This document shows, piece after piece, positions 6,390-30,898 of a stretch of DNA of 32,000 nucleotides. Both the position numbers and the translations under genes were made by a program. Every line of letters begins with the position of its first letter. Positions within the stretch are counted from its first letter, which is position 1. The notes beneath the pieces were generated by a model that was not told the DNA's origin, ran no database searches, and was given only the letters and a program-made list of their open reading frames with translations. Source of the DNA: Longivirga aurantiaca. Its GTDB lineage: Bacteria > Actinomycetota > Actinomycetes > S36-B12 > CAIYMF01. Location: positions 900,001 to 932,000 of the forward strand of contig NZ_JBHSTI010000008.1 of the NCBI RefSeq assembly GCF_042660085.1, read 5' to 3'.

Positions 6390-6535
6390 CGCGCCTCCGA
6401 CCGCTCGGCGCAGGCGTCCTCGCCCTCGGCGCACGGCCCGGGACACCTCCTGACACGCTGCAGGCACGTCCGCGATGCTGGCCGTGTCTGCCCTGGGCTC
6501 CGGCTGCCCGCGGCGTACGAGGAGGTAGGTCGAGG

Positions 6536-8431
6536 ATGAGCCAGGCTGTCGACACGGGTGCGTACCAGCGCGAGCGCGACCGCAGCATCGAGGACCCGGA
6601 GGGCTTCTGGCGCGACGCCGCCGCTGCGATCGACTGGGACGTCGAGCCGCCGATCGTGCTCGACAGGTCCGATGCGCCGTACTACCGCTGGTTCACCGGC
6701 GGTCGCCTCAACACCTGCTTCAACGCGCTCGACCGGCACGTCCTCGCCGGTCATGGCGAGCGCCTCGCGCTCGTCTACGACAGCCCCGTCACCGGCACGG
6801 CCGACACGTACTCGTACTCGCGCCTGCTCGACGAGGTCGCCACCTTCGCCGGGGTGCTGCGCGGGCTCGGCGTGGAGAAGGGCGACCGCGTCCTGCTCTA
6901 CATGCCGATGGTGCCGGAGGCCGTGATCGCGATGCTCGCGACCGCGCGCCTGGGCGCCGTCCACTCGGTGGTCTTCGGCGGTTTCGCGCCGCACGAGCTC
7001 GCGATCCGCATCGACGACGCGACGCCCAAGGTGGTCGTGTCGGCATCGTGCGGGATCGAGCCGGGTCGTGTCGTCGAGTACAAGCCGATGCTCGACCGCG
7101 CGCTCGAGGCCGCCGACCACACGGTCGACGCCACCGTGATCCTCCAGCGGCCGCAGGCCGTGGCCGAGATGGGGGAGCGCGACCACGACTGGCGCGCGCT
7201 CGCGGCTGCGGCCGAGCCCGCCGGCTGCGTGAGCGTCGAGGCCACCGACCCGCTCTACGTGCTCTACACGTCGGGCACGACCGGCAAGCCCAAGGGCATC
7301 GTGCGCGACAACGGCGGCCACGCCGTCGCGCTCGCCTGGAGCATGCGCAACGTCTACGACATCGGCGCTGGCGACGTGTTCTGGGCCGCCAGCGATGTCG
7401 GCTGGGTCGTCGGCCACTCGTACATCGTCTACGCGCCGCTCATCGCCGGCGCCACGACCGTGGTCTACGAGGGCAAGCCCGTGGGGACACCGGATGCCAG
7501 CGCCTTCTGGCGCGTGATCGCGACGTACGGCGTGAAGGCGCTCTTCACCGCGCCGACGGCGTTCCGCGCGATCAAGAAGGAGGACCCCGACGCGTCGCTG
7601 CGCGCGGGTCACGACCTGTCGTCGCTGCAGACGCTGTTCCTCGCCGGCGAGCGGCTCGACCCGGACACCTACCACTGGGCCAGCGACATCCTCGGCATCC
7701 CGGTGGTCGACAACTGGTGGCAGACCGAGACGGGCTGGCCGATCGCGGCCAACCCGCGCGGCCTCGAGCCGCTGCCGATCAAGCCCGGCTCGCCGAGCGT
7801 GATCATGCCGGGGTACGACGTGCGCGTGCTCGACGAGCGCGGGCTCCCGGTCGAGCCCGGCCAGGAGGGCAACATCTCCATCCGCCTACCGCTGCCGCCC
7901 GGCACGCTGCCGACGCTGTGGAACGACGACAAGCGGTACGTCGACTCCTACCTCGCGGTGTTCAGCGGCTACTACGCGACCGGCGACGGCGGCTACATCG
8001 ACGAGGACGGCTACATCTTCGTGATGGGCCGCACCGACGACGTCATCAACGTCGCAGGGCACCGCCTCTCGACCGGCTCGATGGAGGCGGTCGTCGCCAC
8101 CCACCCGATGGTGGCGGAGTGCGCGGTCATCGGCGTCCACGACCAGCTCAAGGGCCAGATCCCGCGCGCGTTCGTGGTGCTGAAGGCTGGCGCAGACATC
8201 GACCCGAAGCAGCTCGAGAAGGAGATCGTCGCGTCGGTGCGCGACGAGATCGGGCCGGTCGCCGCGTTCAAGAGCGTCGTGATCGTGCCGGGCCTGCCCA
8301 AGACCCGCTCGGGCAAGATCCTGCGCCGCACGATGCGCGGCATCGCCGACGGCCGGCCCGAGGCGCCGCCGTCGACGATCGACGACATCAGCGTGCTCGA
8401 CGTCCTGCGCCCCCTGCTCCAGGGCGACTGA
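6536..8431 (+). CDS. prpE: Propionate--CoA ligase / short-chain acyl-CoA synthetase (AMP-forming)
   Basis: ATG at 6536 after GAGGAGG (6520-6526). Matches remembered PrpE along its whole length: DPEGFWRDAA, YTSGTTGKPKG, ASDVGWVVGHSYIVYAPL, DNWWQTETGWPI, GRTDDVINVAGHRL, LPKTRSGKILRR. The tracked ORF start at 6092 overlaps rlmN and is not real. Confidence 0.85.
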   Translation: MSQAVDTGAYQRERDRSIEDPEGFWRDAAAAIDWDVEPPIVLDRSDAPYYRWFTGGRLNTCFNALDRHVLAGHGERLALVYDSPVTGTADTYSYSRLLDEVATFAGVLRGLGVEKGDRVLLYMPMVPEAVIAMLATARLGAVHSVVFGGFAPHELAIRIDDATPKVVVSASCGIEPGRVVEYKPMLDRALEAADHTVDATVILQRPQAVAEMGERDHDWRALAAAAEPAGCVSVEATDPLYVLYTSGTTGKPKGIVRDNGGHAVALAWSMRNVYDIGAGDVFWAASDVGWVVGHSYIVYAPLIAGATTVVYEGKPVGTPDASAFWRVIATYGVKALFTAPTAFRAIKKEDPDASLRAGHDLSSLQTLFLAGERLDPDTYHWASDILGIPVVDNWWQTETGWPIAANPRGLEPLPIKPGSPSVIMPGYDVRVLDERGLPVEPGQEGNISIRLPLPPGTLPTLWNDDKRYVDSYLAVFSGYYATGDGGYIDEDGYIFVMGRTDDVINVAGHRLSTGSMEAVVATHPMVAECAVIGVHDQLKGQIPRAFVVLKAGADIDPKQLEKEIVASVRDEIGPVAAFKSVVIVPGLPKTRSGKILRRTMRGIADGRPEAPPSTIDDISVLDVLRPLLQGD

Positions 8432-8530
8432 CCCGAGCAGGATCGGAGAAGCGCCGCTGCCATACGCCCTGTGAGACTCGGGCGCGTCGGATCGGTAGGT
8501 TCTGCCCGTCATCTCGCCCCGGAGGTCTCC

Positions 8531-9001
8531 GTGCCGTACGTCGTCGACTTCGTCACCGTCTCGACCGAGGGGCTCGAGTCCTCACCCGTCGCGGAGGCGC
8601 TCGCCGGCCTCCGGGCGAACGAGGCCCGCTACTTCCGGAACAAGTACGACGTCGTGTTCGCGACCGAGAAGGCGACGTCGGCCACGGGCAAGAAGCTCGT
8701 CGCGTACGTCGCGAAGGTGCTGAAGGACGAGCGCGACATCGTGCTCGCGTCCACGCCTCTCGAGGCCACCGAGATGCTCATCGACGGCGTGCGCTGGACC
8801 TATGTGTTCTACGAATCGGGCCTGTCGGTCAACGTGCTCTACACGCTCGAGGACGGCGGCAAGCGCGCCGTGGGCTTCAAGCTCTCCGACGGCATGGAGG
8901 TGCCCGAGGAGCTCGAGACGACGTTCAAGTTCGTGCGCCAGAAGTCCAAGCTCGCCGGCACGATCCGCGGCAGCTACTTCGTCATCAGGGGCGAGTACTG
9001 A
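8531..9001 (+). CDS. Hypothetical protein, no domain recognised
   Basis: GTG at 8531 with GGAGG at 8521-8525 (5-nt spacer). Third-codon-position GC is near 100%, like the flanking host genes, so this is a real gene. The 156-aa product (VPYVVDFVTVSTEGLESSPVAEALAGLRANEARYFRNKYDVVFATEK...) is soluble, Lys/Tyr/Phe-rich, and has no motif I can name. Confidence 0.6.
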   Translation: MPYVVDFVTVSTEGLESSPVAEALAGLRANEARYFRNKYDVVFATEKATSATGKKLVAYVAKVLKDERDIVLASTPLEATEMLIDGVRWTYVFYESGLSVNVLYTLEDGGKRAVGFKLSDGMEVPEELETTFKFVRQKSKLAGTIRGSYFVIRGEY

Positions 9002-9013
9002 GGCATGGCCCCG

Positions 9014-9067
9014 CCGACTTGGTAGTGGTAAGTCGCTGTCGGCTGCGACTTTCCACTACCAAGTCGG
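9014..9067. repeat. 23-bp near-perfect inverted repeat (hairpin) between the orphan gene and the HNH gene
   Basis: ccgacttggtagtggtaagtcgc (9014-9036), loop tgtcggct, then gcgactttccactaccaagtcgg (9045-9067). 22 of 23 positions are complementary. The arms are noticeably AT-richer than the surrounding sequence. Confidence 0.85.
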
Positions 9068-9153
9068 GGTGCGGCCGGAATCGCATGTGGTTGCTGTGGA
9101 TATCGCCTGTCGGTGATCGGCGCGCTGTCGGAGGTGGTGGCCATGATGGGGTC

Positions 9154-10629
9154 ATGTCCCAGGCCACCTCCGTCGATCCGGCGGTGGAGCTCGCGCGCCT
9201 GGTCGCGGGTGCGCGGGGTCTGCTGACGGAGGCGTCGGTGCTGGCCGGTTCGGGTGCGGTCGCGGGTGTCGGTCTGGCGGGTCTGCCGGAGCTGACGGCG
9301 GAGCTGTTCGCGGTCCGCGACGCCGCCCACGCCCTGGGCGTGGTCGCGGTGGACCGTCTGGACGCGTCGGGGGTGCTGGCGTCGGCGGGGTTCGGGTCGA
9401 CGACGGCGTTCCTGACCCAGCGCACCGGCATGGCCCCGGGCAGGGCCGGCTCGGTGGTCTCCGGCGCCCGCACGCTGCGGTCGTACGCCGCGACCCGGGT
9501 CGCGCTGGTCGCCGGCCGGGTCACCCCGGACCTGGCCGCTGCCCTGGTGCGCGGGTCGGAGGCGGCGATCGCGGACAGGACCGCCGACGACCGGGTGGCG
9601 TGGCGGGCGTTCTGCGAGGACTACCTCCTCCCGATCGCCGAGCAGGGCTCGGTGGAGGAGGTCGCGGGCGCTGCCGCGATCTTGAAGGAGATCCTGGACC
9701 CGGAGGCGGCGGCCCGCCGCAAGGAAGAAGCCATGGCCGGCCAGTTCCTGACCGTGACCCGGGTGGGGGACCAGTTCGTCCTCAAGGGTGCCCTGACCCT
9801 GGAGGACGGCGCCGCGCTCAAGGTGCTGCTGGACCGGATGCGCGACGCGAAGTACCGGTCGGGATCCCTGACCCCGGACGAGCAGCCCACCGGCGACGCG
9901 GCCACAGATGAGCGGCGGCGCCGGATCGCGGCCGCGCATCAGGACGCCCTGTCGTTGAAGCACCTCGTGCAGCTGTGGCTGGCCAACGGCATGGTCGGGC
10001 GCGCCCACGGGGTCCGACCGCACGTCACCATCAGCACCAGCGTCGACGACCTCGACGCCGGGTTCCCCGGCGAGATCACCGTCCCCGGGATGTCGTCCCC
10101 GGTGCTGGTCAACGCCGACACCGTGCGCCGGATGCTCTGCGACGCCTCAGTCACCGAGATCGCCACCGCCGGATCCGTCCCGGACCGCCACGCCCACCAC
10201 CACGACGGCATCCCCTGCCACGGACCCGCCCACCGGGGACGACACGGGCACGTCCACGGCGTCGCCGGCTGCGAGCTCGACGCCGAGTCGGCGCGGCTCC
10301 TGCGGCGTCGCCACCACGTCTGGGACGAGGGACGCCGCTACCGCACCGTGCCGCCTCGCCTGCGTCGGGCGCTGGACCTGCGGGACCGGCACTGCGCGTT
10401 CCCCGGCTGCCGGATCGCGGTCGGGTGGTGCGAGGCCCACCACATCACCGAGTGGGAGCACGGCGGCGCCACCGACCTCGACAACCTCACGCTCCTGTGC
10501 GCGAAGCACCACCACGCGGTGCACGAGGGCGGATGGACCATCACGAGGGTTCCCGGGATCGACCCGGGATGCCCGACCTGGCTCGCCGTCGAACCGCCCG
10601 ACCCCGCCCCCGTCCGAACCCGGCCCTGA
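9154..10629 (+). CDS. DUF222 / HNH endonuclease (REP13E12-like family)
   Basis: N-terminal DUF222-like region (LAGLPELTAELFAVRDAAHALGVVAVDRLDASGVLASAGFGSTTAFL). C-terminal HNH region RRALDLRDRHCAFPGCRIAVGWCEAHHITEWEHGGATDLDNLTLLCAKHHHAVHEGGW. Start is ATG 9154, with ATG 9085 as an alternative. Only the last 491 codons of tracked ORF 7048..10629 are real. Confidence 0.88.
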   Translation: MSQATSVDPAVELARLVAGARGLLTEASVLAGSGAVAGVGLAGLPELTAELFAVRDAAHALGVVAVDRLDASGVLASAGFGSTTAFLTQRTGMAPGRAGSVVSGARTLRSYAATRVALVAGRVTPDLAAALVRGSEAAIADRTADDRVAWRAFCEDYLLPIAEQGSVEEVAGAAAILKEILDPEAAARRKEEAMAGQFLTVTRVGDQFVLKGALTLEDGAALKVLLDRMRDAKYRSGSLTPDEQPTGDAATDERRRRIAAAHQDALSLKHLVQLWLANGMVGRAHGVRPHVTISTSVDDLDAGFPGEITVPGMSSPVLVNADTVRRMLCDASVTEIATAGSVPDRHAHHHDGIPCHGPAHRGRHGHVHGVAGCELDAESARLLRRRHHVWDEGRRYRTVPPRLRRALDLRDRHCAFPGCRIAVGWCEAHHITEWEHGGATDLDNLTLLCAKHHHAVHEGGWTITRVPGIDPGCPTWLAVEPPDPAPVRTRP

Positions 10630-15397: not shown

Positions 15398-15874
15398 ATG
15401 AAGGCATCGGTGGGAGACCGCATCATCATCGTCCCGCGCACGGTCGGCGGACCTGTGAGGGACGCCCGCGTGGTCGAGGTCAGGAACCCTGACGGCTCGC
15501 CGCCCTACCTCGTCGAGTGGAGCGACTCGGGCCAGCAGGCGCTGTACTTCCCGGGCTCGGACGGGCGGATCGAGCACCTCGAGGACCAGCCCGAGCAGCG
15601 CGACACCGGCGGCTACCACGTGAAGACGTGGCGGGTCACGGTGCACGTGTTCGAGCACGACCCCTCGACGGCGGCGCACGCCGTGCTGATCGCGGACTCG
15701 GGCATCCCGTTGGAGGCCAAGGGATCCGCACGCCGGGCACCGTCGGACCCCGACGTCCCCGAGATCGGCGACGAGGTGGCCGTGGCCCGGGCGCTGCGCG
15801 AGCTCGCGGACTCGCTCATGGCGACGGCGACCAAGGACATGGCCGGCGCCGCGGGCGGCGACCGCGCCTGGTGA
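15398..15874 (+). CDS. DUF1918-like / DUF1876-like two-domain protein
   Basis: ATG at 15398 after GAGGAG. The N-terminus GDRIIIVPRTVGGPVRDARVVEVRNPDGSPPYLVEWSDSGQQALYFPG is DUF1918-like (SH3-like). The C-terminus WRVTVHVFEHDPSTAAHAVLIADSG...PDVPEIGDEVAVARALRELADSL is DUF1876-like. Assignments are from memory of the family consensus. Confidence 0.6.
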   Translation: MKASVGDRIIIVPRTVGGPVRDARVVEVRNPDGSPPYLVEWSDSGQQALYFPGSDGRIEHLEDQPEQRDTGGYHVKTWRVTVHVFEHDPSTAAHAVLIADSGIPLEAKGSARRAPSDPDVPEIGDEVAVARALRELADSLMATATKDMAGAAGGDRAW

Positions 15875-16627: not shown

Positions 16628-17065
16628 TCAGCCGCCGAGCTCGGTCAGCACCTTGGCGATCCTGCGTTCGCGCGTCTCGGCGGTCTTCGCGCCCTCGACC
16701 GAGAGCACATGGCGCTTCTTGTTCGAGTTCGACAGCGCATCGAAGGCCGTCCGGGCAGCGGGGGCCTTCACCAGCGCCGCTGCCAGGTCGTCGGGTACGG
16801 CGACCTCGCGCGTCGAGGTGTCGAGCACCACCTCGACGTCCACGACGTCGCCGGCTGAGACACCTGCGCCCGCGCGGATGGCGGCGCTGACGGGCAGCAG
16901 GAAGCGGCCGCCCATCGACGCGATCGTGCTGGGGTACGAGAAGCCGTTGATGGTGACGGTCACAGCAGGCTTCTTGCCGGAGCCGAGACCCTCGACGACC
17001 TCGGGCGGCACGACGATGCCTGTCGCCGACCTGCCATGCAGGTCGACGGTCGCCTGGAACCTCAT
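16628..17065 (-). CDS. DUF1905 / YdeI-OmpD-associated family protein
   Basis: MRFQATVDLHGRSATGIVVPPEVVEGLGSGKKPAVTVTINGFSYPSTIASMGGRFLLPVSAAIR is a DUF1905 beta-barrel. The C-terminal AFDALSNSNKKRHVLSVEGAKTAETRERRI matches the YdeI-type tail. Confidence 0.7.
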   Translation of the reverse strand: MRFQATVDLHGRSATGIVVPPEVVEGLGSGKKPAVTVTINGFSYPSTIASMGGRFLLPVSAAIRAGAGVSAGDVVDVEVVLDTSTREVAVPDDLAAALVKAPAARTAFDALSNSNKKRHVLSVEGAKTAETRERRIAKVLTELGG

Positions 17066-17105: not shown

Positions 17106-17429
17106 TCACGCGAGCCAGCCGTGCACCGTCCAGGCGATGCCGGCCACCGCGGCGGCGGCGATGACGGCGAGGTAGGCCAGGACGAGGCGGACGTCGCGGA
17201 GATAGCACCGGCTGCGGGTCAGCCCCGCGCGGTGCGCCCGCCAGTAGCCGGCGAGCCCGATGCTCGCGAAGACCAGCACGGCCAGGGGTCCGAAGACCCA
17301 GGCGAGCAGGGCGACCGTCGTGAAGATGCACAGCCGCAGGGGATCGAACGGGGTCGAGGGTCCGGAGGCAGCGAGGCCGGGGTCCCCGGGCAGCGGGCGT
17401 CCCGGGACGCCCGCAGGACTGGTGGTCAT
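17106..17429 (-). CDS. Small (107 aa) three-TM membrane protein, last gene of the fused cassette
   Basis: ATG at 17429 overlaps the radical-SAM stop (ATGA, 17426-17429). MTTSPAGVPGRPLPGDPGLAASGPSTPFDPLRLCIFTTVALLAWVFGPLAVLVFASIGLAGYWRAHRAG...VLAYLAVIAAAAVAGIAWTV. The tracked ORF extension to 17966 is an out-of-frame shadow of the radical-SAM gene. Confidence 0.6.
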   Translation of the reverse strand: MTTSPAGVPGRPLPGDPGLAASGPSTPFDPLRLCIFTTVALLAWVFGPLAVLVFASIGLAGYWRAHRAGLTRSRCYLRDVRLVLAYLAVIAAAAVAGIAWTVHGWLA

Positions 17430-19015
17430 GTCGTCCTCCGTCCGGCCGACAGCGACAGCCGCTGGGCCGAGAGCGCCGGCCACGCCTGGACGGCGCAGAA
17501 CGGGGCGCACTGGTCCCCCTCGTCGCCCCGCGTGCCGACGTGCACGCAGCACTGGGTCAGTCGCTCCTCGATCATCGTGTGGCGGTCCATGAACGGCTTC
17601 ACGGTGATGCGCACGACCCGCTCGCCGAGCATCCGGCGCAGATCCTGCCGTCGCCCGGGGAGACCGGCGGCGGCCGCCATCCTGAGCAGCGAGGAGATCC
17701 CGAGGTCGCACGCCTCGCACACGTCGCGCCAGAGCGCGCCGACGTCGGGGTGGGAGAGGCTGCTCTGCTCGCTGAGCAGGCCGAGCAGCGACTCCTTGAC
17801 GGCCGCCTGGAGCTCCTGGGGGAGCTCGCGGTCGGCGATGCGGTTGGCCACGAGGCCGAGGTGCTCCTTGAGCCGCTCCTCGCCCACCATCGCGACGAGC
17901 GACTTCCACTCGCCACCGTCGGTGCGCAGCAGGTACCCGACGCTGCAGCAGTGCGGGTGCGAGCACGGCAGCGCCGTGAGGTCGTGCCAGGTGACGACGC
18001 CACCCGTCTGGGGCCCGAGCCGGGCGAGGACCCCGGTGTGGGTGAGGCGCTCGGTCGGGTCGACGTCGTGCGACCTGCCCGACCCGAACACCGGCTGGAT
18101 CGAGACGCCGCCGACGAACGGCGTCGCGAGCGCGAGCATCACGACGTCGCCGATCTCGTCGTCGTTCACCCCGAGCGTCGCGGTCATGGTCAGCGTCGTG
18201 AACACCTCGGCCGAGGACAGCCGCTGCAGCGCGAGCCTCTTGATCTGGCGCAGGTCGCCACCCCGGTGGTGGCGCGACGACTCCTCGCGCAGCCCGTCGA
18301 ACTGGAGGTAGACCTCGACGCGCTCCCGGTGCCGCCGGAGCAGCCCGAGCAGGGCGTCGTCGCGGGAGACCTCGACGCCGTTGGTGTTGAGGAGGATGCG
18401 CACGACGTTGCGCGACACGAGCTCGTCGAGCAGGCGCGGCAGCTCCGGGTGCAGCGTGGGCTCGCCCCCGCTGATCATCACGACGTCGAGCCGTCCGTTC
18501 TCACGCGCCAGCCGCTGGTCGACGTTGGCGAGGACGTCCTCGACGGGGACGACGCCGGAGAGCAGGGGCGAGGCGTCGGTGAAGCAGGTCGGGCAGCGGA
18601 GGTTGCAGCCCTCGATGACGTCCTCGAGGAGGATGCACGTGTGCTGCGTCTGCATCTCGCCGAGGCCGCGCAGGTAGGCGCCGGGCACCGCGTCGTAGTT
18701 GCCCGGCGAGTCGGGGACGTGCCACTTCGTGGGCGCCGTCCACTGCTCGAGGTAGGTGAGGATCCCGGGATCCTCGTCGTACAGCGTGCGGACGAACCCG
18801 TGCACGGGGCAGCCGCGCTCGAGCCACACCCGCCCGTCGCGCTCGGCCAGCCAGCCGGAGAGGCGTCGTACCTCCGCCAGCGGCTGGCCGTCCTGCTCGA
18901 CGTGGCAGTGCGGGCAGAACGCGACGACGTAGCGGCGCACGCGGTCGCCGCGCAGCGGCATGCCCTCGCCCCACGTCAGCTGCACGCTCGTGGACGTGCT
19001 GGTGTCGAGAGCCAT
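17426..19015 (-). CDS. Radical SAM enzyme with N-terminal zinc ribbon and Cys-rich C-terminus (MJ0619/Tes-like architecture)
   Basis: ATG at 19015 shares one nucleotide with the upstream stop (TGATG). Motifs: CPHC...CPVH zinc ribbon; CNLRCPTC radical-SAM cluster motif; ISGGEPTL; C-terminal CSHPHCC and CCVHVGTRGDEGDQCAPFC. Confidence 0.85.
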   Translation of the reverse strand: MALDTSTSTSVQLTWGEGMPLRGDRVRRYVVAFCPHCHVEQDGQPLAEVRRLSGWLAERDGRVWLERGCPVHGFVRTLYDEDPGILTYLEQWTAPTKWHVPDSPGNYDAVPGAYLRGLGEMQTQHTCILLEDVIEGCNLRCPTCFTDASPLLSGVVPVEDVLANVDQRLARENGRLDVVMISGGEPTLHPELPRLLDELVSRNVVRILLNTNGVEVSRDDALLGLLRRHRERVEVYLQFDGLREESSRHHRGGDLRQIKRLALQRLSSAEVFTTLTMTATLGVNDDEIGDVVMLALATPFVGGVSIQPVFGSGRSHDVDPTERLTHTGVLARLGPQTGGVVTWHDLTALPCSHPHCCSVGYLLRTDGGEWKSLVAMVGEERLKEHLGLVANRIADRELPQELQAAVKESLLGLLSEQSSLSHPDVGALWRDVCEACDLGISSLLRMAAAAGLPGRRQDLRRMLGERVVRITVKPFMDRHTMIEERLTQCCVHVGTRGDEGDQCAPFCAVQAWPALSAQRLSLSAGRRTT

Positions 19016-19413
19016 CACGCAGTCCCGGCGCTGTTGATGAGCGCGACGCAGACTCCGGCGAACACGATCAGCCCGATGCCGCACCCGATCACGATGCCCA
19101 TCCAGATGCTGCGCGTGCGCACCTCCGTGGCCCGGGCGGTCATGATCCCGGCGATGATCAGCATGGCCGGCACGGCCACGACGGTAAGGCTCGCGAGAGC
19201 TGCGAGCACGGTGGTGATGACCGCGCTCCACGCGACCGTGGCTGTGTCGTAGCGCCGCTCGCCAGGCCCGGCCGAGGGCGCTGGAGGCAGCGGAGGTGCA
19301 GGCGGCGGCGGGGACGCCGCTGCCTCGTCGCCCGCCTCGGACGGCGGCGGCACGGCGGCCTCCTCCGGCGGCCGGTCGTCGTCGGGGCTCGTCGGGATCG
19401 TGGGGTCGCTCAT
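19015..19413 (-). CDS. Small (132 aa) membrane protein with an acidic Pro-rich N-terminus and a Cys-containing C-terminal TM region
   Basis: ATG at 19413 overlaps the Lgt-like stop (ATGA, 19410-19413). MSDPTIPTSPDDDRPPEEAAVPPPSEAGDEAAASPPPPAPPLPPAPSAGPGERRYDTATVAWSAVITTVLAALASLTVVAVPAMLIIAGIMTARATEVRTRSIWMGIVIGCGIGLIVFAGVCVALINSAGTA. Confidence 0.65.
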   Translation of the reverse strand: MSDPTIPTSPDDDRPPEEAAVPPPSEAGDEAAASPPPPAPPLPPAPSAGPGERRYDTATVAWSAVITTVLAALASLTVVAVPAMLIIAGIMTARATEVRTRSIWMGIVIGCGIGLIVFAGVCVALINSAGTA

Positions 19414-20222
19414 GTCGTCTCCCTCGTCGGCACGGTCAGGGTGGGCAGGATCCGGTCGTAGGCGCCCGCCCGCCAGCCGCGGTGAAGGCGGAGGGCGAGC
19501 AGCGGTGAGAGCACCAGGATGAAGACCTGGGATCGGGTGAGGCCGAGGAGGTCCGGCGGGTTGGCCCGCGTGAACTCGACGCCGAAGCGGAACAGGGCGT
19601 ACGCCGCGATGAACAGCACGAAGGTCTCGCCGGGCGCCTCGATGCGGTCGCGGACCGCCCGCAGCGCGAGGAAGGCGAGGACCAGGAAGGCGATCTCGTA
19701 CAGGAACGACGGGTGCATCGGCACCCCGGCGAGGCAGCCCGGGCACTCCGGGATGCTCGCCGCGACGGCCGGGTCGACGGTGATCCCCCAGGGGAGCGAC
19801 GTCGGTCGGCCCGGAGCCTCGGCGAGCAGGCAGCCGATGCGGCCCACGGCCAGGCCGACCGCCACGGCCGGTGCGAAGAGGTCGCCGGTGCGACCGGAGT
19901 AGCCGCCCACCCGTTTGCCGACCAGTGCCCCGACGTAGGCGCCGGTGAGGCCGCCGAGGATGCTGCGCCCGCCCTCGCTCCACGCCCACGCGAGCACGCC
20001 GCCGCCGTCCTGCGTCGCGGCGTCGAGGATGCCGGCGAGGCGCGCTCCGAGCGCGCCTCCGACGACGATGCCGGCCACGACCGGGATGAGCCGCTCGTCC
20101 CACATGCGGCGACGGCGTGTCTCGAGCAGGAAGACGGCCAGGCCCGCGAGGAAGCCGAGGCCGACGAAGAACTCGTGGCTGGGCACGGACAGCCCGCCGA
20201 GAGTGAAGAGCGTAGGGTGCAC
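19410..20222 (-). CDS. Prolipoprotein diacylglyceryl transferase (Lgt) family protein, probable paralog
   Basis: GTG at 20222 preceded by GGGAGGGGGAGG. Lgt-family motifs are present: GLSVPSHEFFVGLGFLAG, GRSILGGLTGAY, LAVGRIGCLLAEAPGRPTSLPWGI, HPSFLYE and FRFGVEFTR. The product is polytopic. Confidence 0.8.
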   Translation of the reverse strand: MHPTLFTLGGLSVPSHEFFVGLGFLAGLAVFLLETRRRRMWDERLIPVVAGIVVGGALGARLAGILDAATQDGGGVLAWAWSEGGRSILGGLTGAYVGALVGKRVGGYSGRTGDLFAPAVAVGLAVGRIGCLLAEAPGRPTSLPWGITVDPAVAASIPECPGCLAGVPMHPSFLYEIAFLVLAFLALRAVRDRIEAPGETFVLFIAAYALFRFGVEFTRANPPDLLGLTRSQVFILVLSPLLALRLHRGWRAGAYDRILPTLTVPTRETT

Positions 20223-20311
20223 GTCCTCCCCCTCCCGCGGGCGTCCCCGGTGCACTACGTCGTACGGTAGCCAAAGGGGCGGCCCGAAGAGCGCCCTCCG
20301 GGTAGGTCGCC

Positions 20312-20842
20312 ATGGTCGTCGTCGGCATCGTCGTCATGATCTGGTGCGCCCTGCGCATCGCCGAGCACGTCCTGTCCGTCCTCGACACGGTCGTCCTGCG
20401 CGAGGAGGGCGCGGTCGAGGCGTGCTCCCGCCAGCACGTGCCCCTGCTGCTGGCCAACCTCGCCGTGCCCGCCCTGGTGCTCGCCGCCTGCTGGCTGGCC
20501 GTGCGCAGGGGGGAGCCGGTCACGGTCGGTCCCGCAACCTGGGCCTGGCTCGCCGTGCTCGTCGTTGCCGAGTGCGTGCACTGGTGGGCCATCGCCACGC
20601 TCGGCCGCCGGTGGACCACGGGGGTGCTGGTGCTGCCCGGAGAGGCGCCGGTGGTCCGAGGGCCCTACCGGTGGCTGCGGCACCCCGGCTACGCCGCCGG
20701 CGTGACGTCAGCCGTGGCGCTGCCCCTCGTGGCAGGAGCCTGGGTCGTGGCGGCACCGGTCGCGGTGATGTTCGCGGTCGTCGTCGTACTGCGCGTGCGG
20801 TGCGAGGACCGCGCCTGGCTCGACGTGGGCGCCGCGGCCTGA
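20312..20842 (+). CDS. ICMT/PEMT-family integral membrane methyltransferase
   Basis: 176 aa, 4-5 TM. VVRGPYRWLRHPGYAAG followed by RCEDRAWL matches the isoprenylcysteine carboxyl / phospholipid methyltransferase core (RHPxY...E). It is divergent from the Lgt-like gene across 89 bp. Confidence 0.75.
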   Translation: MVVVGIVVMIWCALRIAEHVLSVLDTVVLREEGAVEACSRQHVPLLLANLAVPALVLAACWLAVRRGEPVTVGPATWAWLAVLVVAECVHWWAIATLGRRWTTGVLVLPGEAPVVRGPYRWLRHPGYAAGVTSAVALPLVAGAWVVAAPVAVMFAVVVVLRVRCEDRAWLDVGAAA

Positions 20843-20907: not shown

Positions 20908-22305
20908 TCAGTGGCCGCCGAGCAGCGGCGCGAGGATCTCGGCGCGGCGTGCGGGCTTCCCGGTGCGTGCCTCGACCCCGTCGGCCGATCCCATCACGCG
21001 CAGGCCGAGGTTGACCCCGAGCCAGCGGAACGGCTCGGGCTCCCAGCGCCGCTGGCGCCGGTTGACCCACGGAAGCCCGGTGCGGTCGGTGGCCTCGCCG
21101 CGCAGCAGGTCGGCGAGCGTGCGACCTGCGAGGTTGCTCGACGCGACGCCGTCCCCGACGTAGCCGCCCGCCGAGCCGAGCCCCGTCGCGGCGTCGAACG
21201 CCACGGTCGGGAACCAGTCGCGCGGGATGCCGAGAGGGCCGCCCCAGCGGTGGGTGACGGCGTGCCCGTGCAGCGACGGGAACAGGTCCCTCAGCACCCG
21301 CCATAGCTCGTCGTACACGCCGGGGTCGCGATCGAACTCCGGCCGGATCGTCGAGCCGAAGTGGTACGGCGCCCCGCGCCCGCCGAAGGCGAAGCGGTCG
21401 TCGGCAGTCCGCTGGCCGTAGATGATCAGATGGCGGTGGTCGTTGAAGGTCTCCCCGCGGCGCAGGCCGATCTCCGACCACAGCTCTGCCGGCAGCGGCT
21501 CGGTGGCCAGCATGAGCGAGTACACGGGTGCGATGTCGCGCTGGTGCCCGGGCAGCTGCGAGGTCCACGCCTCCGTGGCGCGCACGATCCGGCGGGCGGC
21601 GACGTCGCCGCGCTCCGTGCGCACCAGGCCCGGCTCGATCGCGGTTACGCGCGTGTCCTCGTGGATCGTGACACCGAGCCGCTCGACCGCGAGCGCGAGA
21701 CCGCGCACGAGGCGTGCGGGGTGGATCGAGGCGCAGTGAGGGGTGCGCGTGGCGCCGAGCACGTCGGTGGCCGAGAGCAGCTGGTACGTCTCGTCGGGCG
21801 AGAGCAGGCTGAAGTCGTCGGGGCCGAATCCCCACGCCCGCGCGTCCTCGATCTCTGCCTTCGCACGCTCGAGCTGGAGCGGCGTTCGGGCGAGCGTGAT
21901 GACGCCGCCCTTGCGGTAGTGGCAGTCGATGCCCTCGGCAGCCGCGACCCTGCCGACCTCGTCGACCGTGTCGAACATCGCCCGCTGCAGGGCGACTGCG
22001 TCCTCGCGCGACGACTCCGCGGCGACCTTCGACCACGAGGTGGGGAACAGCGCCGAGGCCCAGCCTCCGTTGCGGCCGCTGGCACCGAAGCCGGCCACCT
22101 GGGCCTCGAGCACCACGATGCGCAGGGTCGGATCGGCCTTGGCCAGGTAGTAGGCCGTCCAGAGCCCGGTGTAGCCGCCGCCGACGATCGCGACGTCGGC
22201 CTCGGTGGAGCTGGCGAGGGGTGCGCGCTGCGGGCCGACGAGGTCGTCGGGCAGCGTGTCCCACCAGAGCGAGAGGTCGCGCAGCGCGGCCTGGTCGACG
22301 CTCAC
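20908..22305 (-). CDS. FAD-dependent oxidoreductase (DAO family, gamma-glutamylputrescine-oxidase-like)
   Basis: GTG at 22305 overlaps the upstream stop (GTGA). ADVAIVGGGYTGLWTAYYLA (GxGxxG) ...GFGASGRNGGW. Length about 465 aa. Confidence 0.8.
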   Translation of the reverse strand: MSVDQAALRDLSLWWDTLPDDLVGPQRAPLASSTEADVAIVGGGYTGLWTAYYLAKADPTLRIVVLEAQVAGFGASGRNGGWASALFPTSWSKVAAESSREDAVALQRAMFDTVDEVGRVAAAEGIDCHYRKGGVITLARTPLQLERAKAEIEDARAWGFGPDDFSLLSPDETYQLLSATDVLGATRTPHCASIHPARLVRGLALAVERLGVTIHEDTRVTAIEPGLVRTERGDVAARRIVRATEAWTSQLPGHQRDIAPVYSLMLATEPLPAELWSEIGLRRGETFNDHRHLIIYGQRTADDRFAFGGRGAPYHFGSTIRPEFDRDPGVYDELWRVLRDLFPSLHGHAVTHRWGGPLGIPRDWFPTVAFDAATGLGSAGGYVGDGVASSNLAGRTLADLLRGEATDRTGLPWVNRRQRRWEPEPFRWLGVNLGLRVMGSADGVEARTGKPARRAEILAPLLGGH

Positions 22306-22961
22306 CGGGTCCACGCCTTCACATACTCGGGCACGGGGTACGCCGCGCCGCGCTCGTCCGGACGTGGCTCGCCGAACACTTCGCGGATCGGCACGACGCC
22401 GCCCCACACCGGCCGGTCGACATCCTGCGGGTCGTCGTCCGGGTCGCTTGCGCTGATCTTCACGCTGACCTCGTCGAGGGGCAGCGCAAGCATCAGCGTG
22501 GCGGCGAGCTCCTTCTTCGACGGCTCGCGGATGTCGTCCCACCGGCCGGGCAGCAGGTGGTCGGAGATGATCCGCAGCGCGTCGTCCTTGTCGTCGCCCT
22601 CGAGCACGGTGCACGTGCCCAGCACCATCGCGCCGCGGTAGTGCATCGAGCTCTCGAACGCCGAGCGCGCGAGCACCAGCCCGTCCAGCAGGGTCACGGT
22701 GAAGCAGGTGGGGGAGCCCTCGGCGAGCGCCCGGAACAGGCGCGAGCCGGTCGAGCCGTGGAAGAGCACCCGCTCGCCGTCGCGTGCGTACGCGACGGGC
22801 ACGACGTACGGCTGACCGTCGTCCACGACGGCGACGTGGGCGACCAGGCCCGCGTCGAGCACCGTGTGCAGCACGGAGCGGTCGGTGACGGCCTTCTCCG
22901 GGATGCGGCGCACACGCGTGCGCTCGGTCGAACCGGGTGCCGGCAGGTCGGGCGTGCTCAC
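22302..22961 (-). CDS. Pyridoxamine 5'-phosphate oxidase-like (flavin-binding split-barrel) family protein
   Basis: RTRVRRIPEKAVTDRSVLHTVLDAGLVAHVAVVDDGQPYVVPVAYARDGERVLFHGSTGSR matches the PNPOx-like (Pyridox_ox_2-type) fold consensus as I remember it. Confidence 0.7.
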   Translation of the reverse strand: MSTPDLPAPGSTERTRVRRIPEKAVTDRSVLHTVLDAGLVAHVAVVDDGQPYVVPVAYARDGERVLFHGSTGSRLFRALAEGSPTCFTVTLLDGLVLARSAFESSMHYRGAMVLGTCTVLEGDDKDDALRIISDHLLPGRWDDIREPSKKELAATLMLALPLDEVSVKISASDPDDDPQDVDRPVWGGVVPIREVFGEPRPDERGAAYPVPEYVKAWTR

Positions 22962-25153: not shown

Positions 25154-26521
25154 ATGACCGACTACGCCGTCGTGAACCCTGCGACCGGCTCCGTCCTCAA
25201 GGAGTACCCGACGATCGGCGACGCCGATCTCGACAGCGCCGTGGCGCGCGCGCACGCCGCCCGCGGGCCCTGGGGCCGGGACACCACCGTCGCCGAGCGC
25301 GCGGCGGTCATCCGCCGCGTGGCCGAGCTGCACGAGGAGCGCAAGCAGGAGCTCGGCGAGATCATCTCCCGCGAGATGGGCAAGCCCGTGGCCCAGGGCG
25401 TGGGCGAGGTCGAGTTCAGCGCGGCCATCTACGAGTACTACGCCGACAACGCCGAGAAGTTCCTGGCCGACGAGCCGATCGACCTGCTCGCGGGCGAGGG
25501 CACCGCGGTCATCCGCCGCAGCCCCGTGGGCGTGCTGCTCGGGATCATGCCGTGGAACTTCCCCTACTACCAGGTCGCTCGTTTCGCGGGCCCGAACCTC
25601 ATCATCGGCAACACCGTGCTGCTCAAGCACGCGCCGCAGTGCCCCGAGTCGGCCGCCGCGATGGAGCAGATCTTCCGCGACGCCGGCGTGCCCGCCGACG
25701 CGTACATCAACATCTACGCCACCAACGACCAGGTCTCGAAGCTCATCGCCGACCCGCGCGTGCAGGGCATCTCCCTCACCGGCTCGGGCCGCGCCGGTGC
25801 CGCCGTCGCCGAGCAGGCCGGACGTCACTTGAAGAAGGTCGTCCTCGAGCTCGGTGGCAGCGACCCGTTCATCGTGCTCGGCACCGACGACATGGACGCC
25901 ACCGTCGAGGCCGCGACCACCGCGCGCATGGACAACGCCGGCCAGGCCTGCAACGCGGGCAAGCGCTTCATCGTCGTCGAGAACCTCTACGACGAGTTCG
26001 TCGAGAAGTTCACCGCCGCCGTGACCGGCATGCAGTACGGCGACCCGTCCGCCGAGGGCACGGCGTATGGCCCGCTGTCCTCCGCGCTCGCGGCGGACCG
26101 TCTCGAGGAGCAGGTGAAGCAGGCGACCGCCGACGGCGCGGTGCTCACCGGCGGTGCGCGCAACGGCAACTTCGTGCAGGGCGGTGTGCTCACCAACGTG
26201 CTGCCGGGCAACTCGGCGTACGGCCAGGAGCTCTTCGGCCCCATCGCGCAGGTCTACAAGGCCGCCGACGAGGCCGAGGCCGTCCGCCTCGCCAACGACA
26301 CCGAGTACGGCCTCGGCAGCTACGTCTTCACGAACGACTTGGAGCAGGCGCTGCGCGTCGCCGACCAGATCGAGGCCGGCATGGTGTTCGTCAACTGCGT
26401 CGGCGCCGACGGCGTCGAGCTGCCCTTCGGCGGCATCAAGGCCTCGGGCTTCGGTCGCGAGCTCGGCCGGTACGGCATGGAGGAGTTCGTCAACAAGAAG
26501 CTCATCCGCGTCAACGCCTGA
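25154..26521 (+). CDS. gabD: NAD(P)-dependent succinate-semialdehyde / aldehyde dehydrogenase
   Basis: [71 protein letters not shown]. The 455-aa length and overall layout resemble GabD1-type SSADH. Confidence 0.8.
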
Positions 26522-27946: not shown

Positions 27947-30124
27947 ATGACCTCGGACGAGCAGCGCACGGTCCACCGCGGATGCAACCTGTGCGAGGCG
28001 AGCTGCGGCCTCACGATCGAGGTGCGGGGGAGCGAGGTGCTCTCGATCCGCGGTGACGCCGACGACCCGATGTCCCAGGGCTACGTCTGCCCCAAGGGCA
28101 TCGCCCTGCAGGACCTGCAGACCGATCCCGACCGGCTGCGGACGCCGGTGCGCCGCCGGGACGACGGGACCTTCGAGCCGATCGGCTGGGACGAGGCGCT
28201 CGACCTCGTGGCTGACGGGCTGACGCGGATCCGCGACCGCGACGGCGGCGAGGCGATCTCGTTCTACCTGGGCAACCCGATCACGCACGGCTGGGCGCCC
28301 GTGACGCTCGTGCCCCTGCTCATGGATGCGCTGGACGTGAAGGCCCGCTACTCGGCCGCCAGCGTCGATCAGCAGCCGCAGCACCTGCTGTCGTACCTGC
28401 TGTACGGGTCACCGCTCCTGCTGCCGGTGCCCGACATCGACCGCACCGACCTGCTGCTCGTCGTCGGCGGCAATCCCGTGGTGTCGAACGGCTCGATCAT
28501 GACCGCGCCCGACATGCGCCGCCGCATCTCCGACCTGCAGGGCCGCGGCGGTCGCGTGGTCGTCGTCGACCCGCGCCGTTCCGAGACGGCCGACGTCGCC
28601 GACGAGCACATCGCCATCCGACCGGGCACCGACGTGTGGCTGCTCGCGGCGATGCTGACGACGCTGCAGGAGGAGGGCCTCGTGCGCCCCGGCCGCGCGT
28701 CCGGCTGGGTGGACGGGCTGCAGCAGGTGCTCGACGCCGTACGCCCCGTGACGGCCGAGCGCGCCGCAGCGGTCACCGGTGTGCCCGCCGAGACGATCCG
28801 GCGGCTGGCGGTCGAGCTCGGCACGGCTCGACGGGCTGCGGTGTACGGCCGCCTCGGTGTCACGCAGTCGGTCTTCGGCACGCCGGCGTACTGGCTCGTG
28901 CACGCCCTCAACATCGCCACCGGCCGCCTCGACGAGGTCGGCGGTGTGATGTTCTCGACGCCGGCGTTCGACCTGCCCGTCATCGGCGCGCGCACGACCG
29001 ACCTCATCGGCTACGACCGCTGGCGCTCGCGGGTGCGCGGCATCCCGGAGTTCTCGGCCGAGCTGCCGGTGGCCACCCTCGCCGACGAGATCCTCACGCC
29101 CGGCACGGGGCAGCTGCGTGCGCTCGTGCTGTACGCCGGCAACCCCGTGCTGTCCGCGCCCGACGGCACGCGGCTCGAGCAGGCGCTGCAGGACCTCGAG
29201 CTCTGCGTCGCCGTCGACTACTACGTGACGGAGTCGACGCGCCACGCCCACGTGATCCTCCCGCCGACCTCGCCGCTCGAGCGCGACGAGTTCGACGTCG
29301 TCTTCCCCGCCGTGAGCGTGCACAACTGGGTGCGCTGGAGCCCGGCGGCCGTCCCCGCGCCGGAGGGGTCGATGTCCGACGCCGACATCCTGCTCGCCCT
29401 GCTCGCGCGCGTCTGGCGTCGTACGCCGAAGACGCGGCGCACTGCCGCGGTGCGCGAGAAGGCGTTCCGCGGGCTCTTCCCGAAGCGGTTCGTCGACCTC
29501 GGGCTGCGCGCCGGTCCGCACGGCGCACGGAAGGGACGCTCGGGCCTCACGCTCGCGAAGGTGATGCGCGCCGAGCACGGCCTCGACCTCGGCCCGCTCG
29601 TGCGGCAGCTGCCCCAGCGGCTCATGACCGAACGGCACCGCATCCCGCTCGCGCACCCCGCCGTGCTGGCGGACTGGCCGCGCGTGCTCGCCGCCCTCGA
29701 GGAGCTCGAGGCCGGGCGTTCGGACGGCCGGGATCTGCTGCTCATCGGTCGACGGCATCTGCGCAGCAACAACTCGTGGATGCACAACAGCGCCCGTCTC
29801 ACCAAGGGCCGCAACCGATTCACGGTGCAGATGCACCCGGACGACGCCGCTGCGCGCGGCCTGGCGGACGGCGACACAGCCGTCATCAGCACCGATGTCG
29901 GCAGCATCGAGGTGCCGGTCGAGGTGACCGACCGCCTGATGCCCGGGGTGGTGAGCGTGCCGCACGGCTACGGCCACGACCGGGCCGGCACCCCGACGGG
30001 CTGGCGGCATGCGTCGTCGCTCGGCGGCGCGAGCGTGAACGACATCACGGACACGCAGCGGATCGACCCGCTGTCGGGCAACGCCGCGGTGCAGGCAGTG
30101 CCCGTGACCGTCTCGCGCGCCTGA
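27947..30124 (+). CDS. Molybdopterin (bis-MGD) oxidoreductase family protein
   Basis: N-terminal 4Fe-4S Mo/W-bisPGD motif CNLCEASCGL...YVCPKG, a molybdopterin-binding core, and a C-terminal beta-barrel (VQMHPDDAAARGLADGDTAVIST..GSIEVPVEVTDRLMPGVVSVPHGYG). The substrate is not inferable. Confidence 0.85.
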   Translation: MTSDEQRTVHRGCNLCEASCGLTIEVRGSEVLSIRGDADDPMSQGYVCPKGIALQDLQTDPDRLRTPVRRRDDGTFEPIGWDEALDLVADGLTRIRDRDGGEAISFYLGNPITHGWAPVTLVPLLMDALDVKARYSAASVDQQPQHLLSYLLYGSPLLLPVPDIDRTDLLLVVGGNPVVSNGSIMTAPDMRRRISDLQGRGGRVVVVDPRRSETADVADEHIAIRPGTDVWLLAAMLTTLQEEGLVRPGRASGWVDGLQQVLDAVRPVTAERAAAVTGVPAETIRRLAVELGTARRAAVYGRLGVTQSVFGTPAYWLVHALNIATGRLDEVGGVMFSTPAFDLPVIGARTTDLIGYDRWRSRVRGIPEFSAELPVATLADEILTPGTGQLRALVLYAGNPVLSAPDGTRLEQALQDLELCVAVDYYVTESTRHAHVILPPTSPLERDEFDVVFPAVSVHNWVRWSPAAVPAPEGSMSDADILLALLARVWRRTPKTRRTAAVREKAFRGLFPKRFVDLGLRAGPHGARKGRSGLTLAKVMRAEHGLDLGPLVRQLPQRLMTERHRIPLAHPAVLADWPRVLAALEELEAGRSDGRDLLLIGRRHLRSNNSWMHNSARLTKGRNRFTVQMHPDDAAARGLADGDTAVISTDVGSIEVPVEVTDRLMPGVVSVPHGYGHDRAGTPTGWRHASSLGGASVNDITDTQRIDPLSGNAAVQAVPVTVSRA

Positions 30125-30898
30125 TCAGACCGCGACGGCGAGGACCGGGGTCGTGGTCGGCGCGGCCGACCCGCCCTCGGGCTCGACCGTGACGCCGACG
30201 CCGGTGGCGCCGGCCAGCTCGCCCTGCAGGACGACGGCGCTGCGCTCGCCCGCCGGTACGAAGCCGGCCGACGTGGCGGCGCCGGAGTCCGAGAGGTACC
30301 AGATCTGGTACGTGCTGCCCGCGGGCGCGGGCGCCATGCCGTCGGTGACCAGCACCGACTTCCCGAGCGAGGCCGACGACACGACGGCCGCGCGACCGCC
30401 GGTCGTGACGCTCGCCGTGGTCGTCGTGGCGTCCGCCGCCGTCAGCACGGCGGTGACCTCGGCAGCCTGAGCCGACACGGAGTCGAGCTGGTTGTCGAGC
30501 TGCACCGCGCGGACGACCGCGCCACCGGCGACGAGCGCGAGAGCGGCGGCGACGCCGACGAGCCACGGCGAGGTACGGCGGGTGCGGCGCTCCCGGGCTG
30601 CGGCCAGGTCGTCGACCGGCGCATCGGTGCGAGCAGCCGGCTCGACCACCGGTGCCTCGCCGACCGGCGGCAGGGGCCGCACCTGCGAGATGCCGGCGAG
30701 CACGGACGACCGCAGCGACGGCGGGGGAGTCTCGGCGACGTCGAGCGCGAGCGCACCAGCGGCCTCGCGCAGCGAGCGGACCTCGTCGCGGCACGAGGCG
30801 CACGACTCGAGGTGCTCCTCGAAGGCAGCCGACTCGGCGGGCTCGAGGGCGTCGAGGGCGTACGCGCCGGACAGCGCGTGGACATCTGCGTTCGTCAT
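30125..30898 (-). CDS. rskA: Anti-sigma-K factor RskA
   Basis: ATG at 30898 overlaps the sigK stop (ATGA). The N-terminal zinc-finger-like anti-sigma domain is LSGAYALDALEPAESAAFEEHLESCASCRDEV. It is followed by a single TM segment (WLVGVAAALALVAGGAVV) and an extracytoplasmic RskA domain (YQIWYL...GVTVEPEGGS). Confidence 0.88.
   Translation of the reverse strand: MTNADVHALSGAYALDALEPAESAAFEEHLESCASCRDEVRSLREAAGALALDVAETPPPSLRSSVLAGISQVRPLPPVGEAPVVEPAARTDAPVDDLAAARERRTRRTSPWLVGVAAALALVAGGAVVRAVQLDNQLDSVSAQAAEVTAVLTAADATTTTASVTTGGRAAVVSSASLGKSVLVTDGMAPAPAGSTYQIWYLSDSGAATSAGFVPAGERSAVVLQGELAGATGVGVTVEPEGGSAAPTTTPVLAVAV

Follow-up and report, generated by a model that had tools for sequence, protein, structure and literature searches.

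A Radical-SAM Enzyme of the GDGT-MAS Superfamily and Its Lgt Paralog Partner: A Previously Undescribed Membrane Cassette of Actinobacteria and Armatimonadota

What is an enzyme with the fold of an archaeal tetraether synthase doing in an aerobic actinobacterium, and why is it encoded next to a paralog of the lipid transferase Lgt? This question is raised by a locus of Longivirga aurantiaca, which lies within a stretch of 32,000 nucleotides of contig NZ_JBHSTI010000008.1 (positions 900,001 to 932,000, forward strand; hereafter the window, with positions counted from its first letter). The locus is a four-gene operon on the minus strand which encodes, in the 5' to 3' direction, the Lgt paralog, a small membrane protein (protein A), an enzyme of the radical S-adenosylmethionine (SAM) type and a second small membrane protein (protein B); the coordinates of these genes are collected in Table 1. 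Here, we examine each component in turn and conclude that a known enzyme superfamily occurs here in a hitherto undescribed gene system, a four-gene membrane cassette common to many Actinobacteria and Armatimonadota.

Table 1. Coordinates of the cassette genes, of the domains of the radical-SAM enzyme and of the other annotated features of the window
Feature	Position	Strand	Evidence or remarks
Lgt paralog (PF01790), first operon gene	19410..20255	-	Pfam LGT 118.8 bits; alignment to Escherichia coli Lgt 5AZB
Small membrane protein A, 132 amino acids	19015..19413	-	ATG 19413-19411 overlaps Lgt stop; stop overlaps radical-SAM ATG
Radical-SAM enzyme, GDGT-MAS/Tes/HMPTM superfamily, 529 amino acids	17426..19015	-	Translation, Pfam, NCBIfam, PDB search, homologs, AlphaFold model, Foldseek
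Rubredoxin-like Zn/Fe ribbon, residues 30-80	18776..18928	-	PF23545 match; ligands C34, C37, C69, H72 all invariant
Radical-SAM core, residues 134-293	18137..18616	-	PF04055 69.5 bits; motif residues invariant
C-terminal auxiliary-cluster domain, residues 351-507	17495..17965	-	Cys conservation and weak alignment of 467-509 to GDGT-MAS
Small membrane protein B, 107 amino acids	17106..17429	-	ATG 17429-17427 overlaps radical-SAM stop (ATGA)
ICMT/PEMT-family membrane methyltransferase	20312-20842	+	Divergent from Lgt paralog
DUF1918 and Rv2632c-like protein	15398-15871	+	Downstream of operon; not conserved with it
DUF1905 and OmdA (YdeI-like) protein	16628-17065	-	Downstream of operon; not conserved with it
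Pyridox_ox_2 flavoprotein	22302-22961	-	
Aldehyde dehydrogenase	25154-26521	+	
Molybdopterin oxidoreductase with Fe4S4 domain	27947-30124	+	
Sigma-70 family factor	30895-31977	-	N-terminal extension of ~200 amino acids

That the radical-SAM gene is real follows from its homologs: more than 2,900 were recovered by a word-indexed search, and the best 120 of these are 69-88% identical to it. Among these 120, the sources are Nocardia, Nonomuraea, Microbispora, Mycobacterium, Pseudonocardiaceae and metagenome-assembled genomes of freshwater Actinomycetota, and nearly all of the proteins are annotated merely as "radical SAM protein". The ATG start codon at 19015 shares the sequence TGATG with the stop codon of the upstream gene, and because of this overlap a longer open reading frame that begins at GTG-19231 was rejected as the gene; Met19 is a possible alternative start. 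A preliminary description of the locus, made from its sequence, had listed an N-terminal zinc ribbon, two core motifs and two C-terminal cysteine clusters, and all of these are present in the translation, as C34-P-H-C37 ... C69-P-V-H72, C137-NLR-C141-PT-C144 (the CX3CX2C motif, 18584-18607), GGEPTL at 183-188 (with the SAM-binding GGEPT at residues 183-187), C351-SHPH-C356-C357 and C489-C490-VHVGTRGDEGDQ-C503-APF-C507. An additional pair, C433-EA-C436, was absent from that list. The same description had seen no SPASM or twitch motif, and we find none either: the spacing CX2CX5CX3C does not occur among the cysteines of the 529-residue protein, whose C-terminal spacings are CX4C(C), CX2C, CC and CX3C, and the SPASM/twitch models of NCBIfam match only residues ~130-300, which form the radical-SAM core, at 20-38 bits against cutoffs of 170-850. 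A SPASM peptide maturase was consequently rejected, there being no RRE and no SPASM/twitch domain or spacing.

The preliminary description had treated the conservation of the C-terminal cysteines as critical, and residue conservation was counted over an alignment of 124 family members. The ribbon residues C34, C37, C69 and H72, the pair H125 and C127, the core cysteines C137, C141 and C144, and the C-terminal residues C351, H353, C356, C436, C489, C490 and C507 are all invariant; C433 is kept in 123 of the 124 sequences and C503 in 122, and H492 is invariant or nearly so. Of the clusters that had been described, only C357 is weaker (89/124, or 72%). When the alignments are compared across the superfamily, the cysteines at 351, 356, 489, 490 and 507 prove to be widespread, C433 and C436 sit in an insertion common to this clade and Armatimonadota, and C503 is specific to Actinobacteria.

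To which family does such a protein belong? Its architecture is of the HMPTM type, with Zn_ribbon_HMPTM (PF23545, residues 30-80) followed by Radical_SAM (PF04055, residues 134-293), and both domains exceed their Pfam gathering scores (38.1 bits against 27, and 69.5 bits against 29.5). The sole sequence match in the PDB is the GDGT-MAS of Methanocaldococcus jannaschii (MJ0619; 7TOL/7TOM), with an E value of 9e-31 over residues 36-356; in a weak second segment (residues 467-509, 8.8 bits), QCCVH...PFC is aligned to the RCCIH...PFC of GDGT-MAS. An AlphaFold model that was based on 63 aligned actinobacterial and Armatimonadota sequences (mean predicted local distance difference test score, pLDDT, 78.9; predicted template modeling score 0.85) was matched by Foldseek to 7TOM over its full length, with an E value of 3.8e-33, template modeling (TM) scores of 0.72 and 0.76 and a root-mean-square deviation of 5.2 Å over ~550 columns. 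There was no second full-length structure, all the other Foldseek matches being confined to the radical-SAM core with TM scores of at most 0.33. A helical sub-domain at ~379-466 is modeled with low confidence (pLDDT below 50 at residues 389-445). This model replaced a poor first one, derived from 46 sequences of 68% identity or more, in which the radical-SAM motif was disordered (pLDDT 65.5); 7TOM was likewise top-ranked with that poorer model. The radical-SAM protein thus belongs to the MJ0619/Tes (GDGT-MAS) superfamily, and in this respect the layout named in the preliminary description is borne out by the profile and structure searches which it had recommended, without any match to a SPASM peptide maturase beyond the core.

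Its position within the superfamily is a remote one. A search of 1.84 billion cluster representatives gave 3,655 relatives at E values up to 0.001; three clade representatives are 67%, 47% and 41% identical to the protein, after which the identity falls steeply to 39% or less. None of the 20 nearest full-length cluster representatives attains the cutoff of the Tes or the TrsS model, and the clade representatives P0121, P0122 and P0128 score 147-192 bits against NF045702, the Tes/GDGT-MAS model. Given this steep fall in identity and the failure of even the nearest representatives to reach either cutoff, the protein lies in a large uncharacterized region of the superfamily.

The preliminary description had also seen in the layout and the gene context a fit to a lipid-directed radical reaction. 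The radical-SAM protein is not, however, a Tes/GDGT-MAS ortholog. NF045702 gives 145.2 bits against a cutoff of 450, in a match limited to residues 32-354, and the sequence identity to GDGT-MAS is only ~21%. In the archaeal enzyme, the rubredoxin site is C9X2C12X20C33X2H36, the N-terminal auxiliary cluster is held by C73, C77, C80 and a histidine, and the C-terminal cluster has a labile ligand, Met439 (PMC9433317). The two proteins match in their overall four-domain fold (TM 0.72-0.76), in the rubredoxin site (C34, C37, C69 and H72 here correspond to C9, C12, C33 and H36), in the CX3CX2C radical-SAM cluster and in the C-terminal CCxH...PFC motif (C489, C490, H492 and C507 here), and the FMD motif beside the Met439 position is also retained. 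They differ in that the ligands of the N-terminal cluster are missing here and Met439, as aligned, is too; only H125 and C127 remain near the lost N-terminal [Fe4S4] site, and in an alignment of 54 cluster representatives columns 116/119 hold Arg/Gly in this clade versus Cys/Cys in most distant relatives. In the weak segment (8.8 bits), C438 of GDGT-MAS is aligned with V472. There are also extra cysteines in the actinobacterial protein, at 351 and 356 (each a serine in MJ0619 as aligned), 433, 436 and 503, and the last three could, as judged from the alignments, supply ligands of the C-terminal cluster. Finally, the host here is bacterial and aerobic, and partners such as the Lgt paralog and the small proteins have not been described for Tes.

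These likenesses and differences bear directly on the possibility that the enzyme is, essentially as the preliminary description had it, a true bacterial synthase of tetraether or membrane-spanning lipids, which, like Tes/GDGT-MAS or Mss, links two bulk phospholipids through their tails. The entire fold is that of GDGT-MAS, with conservation of the rubredoxin site, of the radical-SAM cluster and of the C-terminal CCxH..FC motif, and the bacterial Tes homologs that Zeng et al. counted at E < 1e-50 have been proposed as synthases of brGDGTs (branched glycerol dialkyl glycerol tetraethers) (PMC8941075). The clade described here is far more divergent than those homologs and has another gene context, and both the Tes model (145 bits vs. 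450) and the missing [Fe4S4]N ligands C73/C77/C80, with the apparent lack of Met439, speak against such a synthase. A bulk-lipid synthase would moreover have no need of an obligate Lgt paralog or of cysteine-bearing small proteins, neither of which has been reported with Tes or Mss; the carriers of the cassette are mostly aerobes, and to our knowledge mycobacteria and Nocardia have not been found to make such lipids. On balance we regard this explanation as distinctly unlikely. Mss, from Thermotoga and Clostridia, is reported to share the Tes catalytic architecture (PMC13274423) and has been described as merely remotely related to Tes and as coming from anaerobes (PMC13159169). Radical-SAM action on the acyl-chain termini of glycerolipids, as in Mss, is the chemistry that we propose below by analogy; the comparison with Mss is one of published descriptions, and no Lgt partnership has been reported for it.

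The most informative evidence comes from the gene neighborhood. The junctions of the operon are overlaps of 1-4 nucleotides (ATGA between the genes for the Lgt paralog and protein A, TGATG between those for protein A and the radical-SAM enzyme, ATGA between the latter and that for protein B), and from this sequence the four genes are predicted to be translationally coupled; scans of the operon for promoters and terminators found none. About 556 genomes carry the radical-SAM gene, and we surveyed 83 loci with close homologs (80 genome loci and 3 others). In 81 of these actinobacterial loci the gene immediately upstream, on the same strand, is of the Lgt family, and the two loci without such a neighbor are contig ends. 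The association extends beyond the Actinobacteria. In a clade of Armatimonadota (41% identity), to which the cultured Fimbriimonas ginsengisoli belongs, the genes run radical SAM, Lgt, A, B; in two further lineages (37% and 39% identity) they run Lgt, small protein(s), radical SAM. There are even two single-chain fusions of LGT, Zn_ribbon_HMPTM and Radical_SAM domains, P0235 (733 amino acids; L093 803-3004) and P0239 (671 amino acids; L094 2684-4699). The E. coli Lgt has its C-terminus in the cytoplasm, and this topology fits the order of the fusions, in which the LGT domain precedes the radical-SAM domains.

Some further features of the fusions may be recorded. They come from two separate metagenomic lineages, each has the sequence GRxGC in its LGT domain, and, unlike the window protein, both retain cysteine-rich sequence where GDGT-MAS has its N-terminal auxiliary cluster. 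Both fusion genes are adjoined by a gene for a cysteine-rich polytopic membrane protein (L093 3-806, L094 4686-6065), and these neighbors share the motifs ..EC/NACA.NVL.. and RCAA..LC..C.KHA.V.CGLR; the L094 protein is fused to a rhodanese domain. This membrane protein may be a further accessory component in the fusion lineages.

The link between the radical-SAM enzyme and the Lgt-family gene and small membrane proteins, which the preliminary description had drawn from a single window, is thus real and far stronger than any one window could reveal. The broader claim of a lipid-enzyme context holds only in part, for the Lgt-family gene is conserved and the ICMT-family neighbor is not, being found near the radical-SAM cassette in 0 of the 83 loci. 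As candidate members of the cassette, the ICMT gene, the DUF1905/OmdA gene and a membrane open reading frame of 187 amino acids were all rejected, since they are conserved in only 0-1 of the 83 loci.

Is the Lgt link peculiar to this clade, or does it reflect a general habit of the superfamily? The sister clades P0164 and P0203, which are nearer to TrsS and Tes, have a class-I SAM methyltransferase gene that overlaps the 3' side of the radical-SAM gene and no Lgt nearby, and the link is therefore specific. Loci of this methyltransferase type are L090 (5001-7210), L091 and L092 (1263-3438), the last with a DsbD-like membrane protein upstream; they possibly represent a TrsS-type context. TrsS itself (NF045646) is the top NCBIfam family for the window protein, at 181.1 bits against a cutoff of 490, and its match reaches through the C-terminal domain (residues 50-509); the C351/C356/C489/C490/C507 pattern recurs in many relatives whose scores lie between Tes and TrsS. 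Its function is uncharacterized, and it appears solely in a selenoprotein table (PMC13188914). Could the enzyme be TrsS-like, or a pterin methylase (HMPTM), that is, an enzyme of a small molecule, an organometal or a cofactor, with its membrane partners incidental? The top rank of TrsS and the label of 7,8-dihydro-6-hydroxymethylpterin dimethyltransferase that the Joint Genome Institute (JGI) gives to many homologs are in accord with this. The TrsS score is far below its cutoff, the examined relatives that score closest to TrsS/Tes have the methyltransferase and no Lgt, and the fusions with Lgt favor a membrane or lipid role. The authors who reported the GDGT-MAS structure could not corroborate that MJ0619 is active as a pterin methylase (PMC9433317). 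Such an enzyme is very improbable here, and the pterin methylase was rejected on account of the Lgt fusions, the differing context of the relatives nearer to TrsS/Tes and the uncorroborated activity of MJ0619.

What, then, is the Lgt paralog? It reaches the Pfam LGT domain score and scores 74.7 bits with TIGR00544, the canonical Lgt equivalog, whose cutoff is 118.9. Aligned with the E. coli enzyme (5AZB, whose numbering is used), it retains R143, E151, G154, Y235, R239, E243 and R246, and thus the Arg, Tyr and Glu residues that bind phosphate and glycerol or act in catalysis. The canonical Lgt differs in three residues, Y26 being His, H103 being Leu and N146 being Cys (motif GRIGC) in the paralog; the paralog also differs by a CPGC in the head domain and by its pairing or fusion with a radical-SAM enzyme. 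GRxGC is present in all 79 Lgt-family neighbors with a detectable motif region, both fusions included. With these seven residues retained and GRxGC in 79/79, the Lgt paralog looks, by its residues, enzymatically competent. The CPGC lies in the predicted extracytoplasmic head domain and occurs at 69 of the 79 loci, with other CxxC variants in 6 more; it is a thioredoxin-like motif that may form a disulfide, act in redox chemistry or bind a metal. Asn146 of E. coli Lgt is essential. It is listed among the conserved Lgt motif residues in a recent survey of Lgt, where MSMEG_5408, an unexplained second Lgt homolog of Mycobacterium smegmatis, has Y26H and N146C (10.1101/2025.03.27.645668). These are the same substitutions as in the Lgt paralog, and they suggest a possible tie of MSMEG_5408 to the cassette. 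The radical-SAM enzyme is carried by M. goodii, a close relative of M. smegmatis, and by M. fortuitum, M. wolinskyi, M. mageritense and M. peregrinum; M. smegmatis is not among the best 120 homologs listed. Two genes from MSMEG_5408, the "hypothetical protein" MSMEG_5406 drops ~9-fold under zinc starvation by TPEN (PMC7174638). A transcriptome table is all that was found in the literature on MSMEG_5405-5411.

The two small proteins match no Pfam or NCBIfam family. Protein A has an N-terminus that is Pro-rich in Actinobacteria, followed by hydrophobic segments that form transmembrane helices, and its N-terminal domain is probably cytoplasmic by the positive-inside rule. Arginine residues precede its last in-to-out helix, at the outer end of which is an invariant cysteine (..FAGVCVALINSAGTA). 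The equivalent open reading frames terminate at the radical-SAM start in most loci, and a strict tail, K/R..GxGxG..[GA]W..[AV]-G-[FLIYV]-C, is present in 72 of the 83, mostly 9-10 residues from the C-terminus. The context of the cysteine is FAGVC in the window and ALIGGC in Fimbriimonas; the protein A of Armatimonadota has a Zn-ribbon N-terminus together with this ..ALIGGC... With an invariant cysteine that follows small residues and marks the outer end of a helix preceded by Lys or Arg, protein A fits the role of an acceptor: its predicted geometry is that of a lipoprotein signal peptide with a noncanonical lipobox, such as a dedicated acceptor of an Lgt-type enzyme would show.

Protein B has a hydrophobic hairpin between two conserved cysteines (DPLRLC ... 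RSRCYLRD), then a further transmembrane helix; its consensus is LxLC ... [ST][RK]C[WFY]L[RK] with a Lys/Arg-rich loop, and both cysteines are probably at the cytoplasmic surface of the membrane. It was detected downstream of the radical-SAM gene by tblastn in 52 of the 83 loci, at 48-73% identity, and its motif is also found in Armatimonadota and L084. In Nonomuraea fastidiosa CP170570 (L002 9053-9896) the frame of protein B is split over two overlapping frames; a near-identical contig (L003) has an intact gene of 105 amino acids, and the split reflects either an error of assembly or a genuine frameshift.

Such proteins invite the thought that they, and not a lipid, are what the enzyme modifies. 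It would then install a thioether or C-C cross-link at a cysteine of A or B, or mature a small lipopeptide from the C-terminus of A, with the role of the Lgt paralog confined to adding the lipid. Both proteins have invariant cysteines and are translationally coupled to the enzyme, in Nocardia and mycobacteria the tail of protein A that follows the cysteine is conserved (C-T-G-[ILV]-N-P-x-[LM]-Y), and the two cysteines of B are predicted to be on the cytoplasmic side, which is also that of the enzyme. Against this, neither Pfam nor NCBIfam gives an RRE or a SPASM/twitch domain of the peptide-maturase kind, the sole characterized relative of the same fold acts on lipids (PMC9433317), and the cysteine of protein A is predicted to lie at the outer leaflet, beyond the reach of a cytoplasmic enzyme once the protein is inserted. 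Moreover, the tails of protein A differ widely from clade to clade, and protein B is undetected beside the gene in most Mycobacterium-type loci. A protein-directed enzyme seems to us unlikely, if somewhat less so than a synthase of bulk lipids.

The pairing and fusion with Lgt and the small cysteine proteins point instead to an undiscovered modification of lipids or lipoproteins. The general model to which we give roughly even chances is one in which radical chemistry at the tail of a glycerolipid is coupled to an Lgt-type transfer of lipid onto protein A; in any particular product we have much less confidence. That the substrate would be the acyl chain of a glycerolipid is inferred by analogy, because the sole characterized enzyme of the fold, GDGT-MAS, acts on lipids. 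GDGT-MAS binds phospholipid and acts at the termini of the lipid tails, where it activates terminal methyl carbons by way of a lipid-S(cluster) intermediate, and the coupling of two inert methyl groups by radicals was, to the knowledge of its authors, unprecedented in nature (PMC9433317). For the radical-SAM enzyme, a coupling of lipids from tail to tail through a C-C bond is a hypothesis.

How might the four components work together? The radical-SAM enzyme, with its rubredoxin-like N-terminal site, its SAM-cleaving [4Fe-4S] cluster and its cysteine-rich C-terminal domain, would be the catalytic subunit, on the cytoplasmic side, of a membrane system with four components. The Lgt paralog would bind a phosphoglycerolipid and move its diacylglyceryl moiety to the cysteine of protein A. 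Together with protein B, it would hold the radical-SAM enzyme at the cytoplasmic face of the membrane, where a hydrogen atom would be abstracted from an unactivated carbon of an acyl chain, in either the lipidated product or the donor lipid. The C-terminal cluster would presumably mediate the formation of a new C-C or C-S bond, much as in the lipid-S(cluster) intermediate of GDGT-MAS. In a more daring version of the model, an acyl tail of the diacylglyceryl-cysteine that the Lgt paralog makes on protein A, in the outer leaflet, would be cross-linked by the radical-SAM enzyme, either by a C-C bond to an inner-leaflet lipid or by a C-S bond to a cysteine of protein B, to give a covalent anchor that spans the bilayer. 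This version we consider doubtful.

A number of observations weigh against the lipid-tail model. The site of Lgt is at the outer leaflet and that of the radical-SAM enzyme is cytoplasmic, that is, they are on opposite faces of the membrane. Membrane-spanning or cross-linked glycerolipids are, as far as we know, unreported in the well-studied mycobacteria or Nocardia. The residue before the cysteine of protein A is usually bulky (F/L/I/Y), unlike that of a canonical lipobox, and the absence of a detectable protein B from most Mycobacterium-type loci (tblastn, 83 loci) applies here too. C73, C77 and C80 of GDGT-MAS are aligned with Pro, Gly and Glu in the window protein, and Met439 with Lys473, the latter in the weak segment of 8.8 bits; with these ligands missing, the chemistry may differ from that of the crystallized GDGT-MAS. 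Among the papers that full-text searches gave for Tes, GDGT-MAS and Mss, and for the "Tes homologs" of bacteria, none deals with this clade, with the Lgt partnership or with the fusions.

As for the rest of the window (Table 1), several long open reading frames at 1956-10023 on the minus strand gave no match to Pfam; in DNA with 72% G+C, they may be shadow frames.

To date, the single characterized enzyme of this fold is an archaeal tetraether synthase, and the cassette adds to the fold a deeply conserved bacterial clade with a link to a lipid transferase. Its carriers include organisms of clinical and environmental importance, among them Nocardia, the Mycolicibacterium fortuitum group, Mycobacterium scrofulaceum and Nonomuraea. 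A note of caution follows for paleoclimate-proxy studies: not every bacterial "Tes homolog" is a brGDGT synthase, and this clade is no marker for brGDGTs. For work on mycobacterial lipoproteins, the cassette offers a concrete hypothesis for the noncanonical "second Lgt" with its N146C and Y26H substitutions. If the bilayer-spanning anchor were to prove true, it would be a kind of lipid-protein conjugate unknown in any organism, present in Armatimonadota and in Actinobacteria such as the environmental mycobacteria and Nocardia, and it would also account for the enigmatic second Lgt of M. smegmatis.

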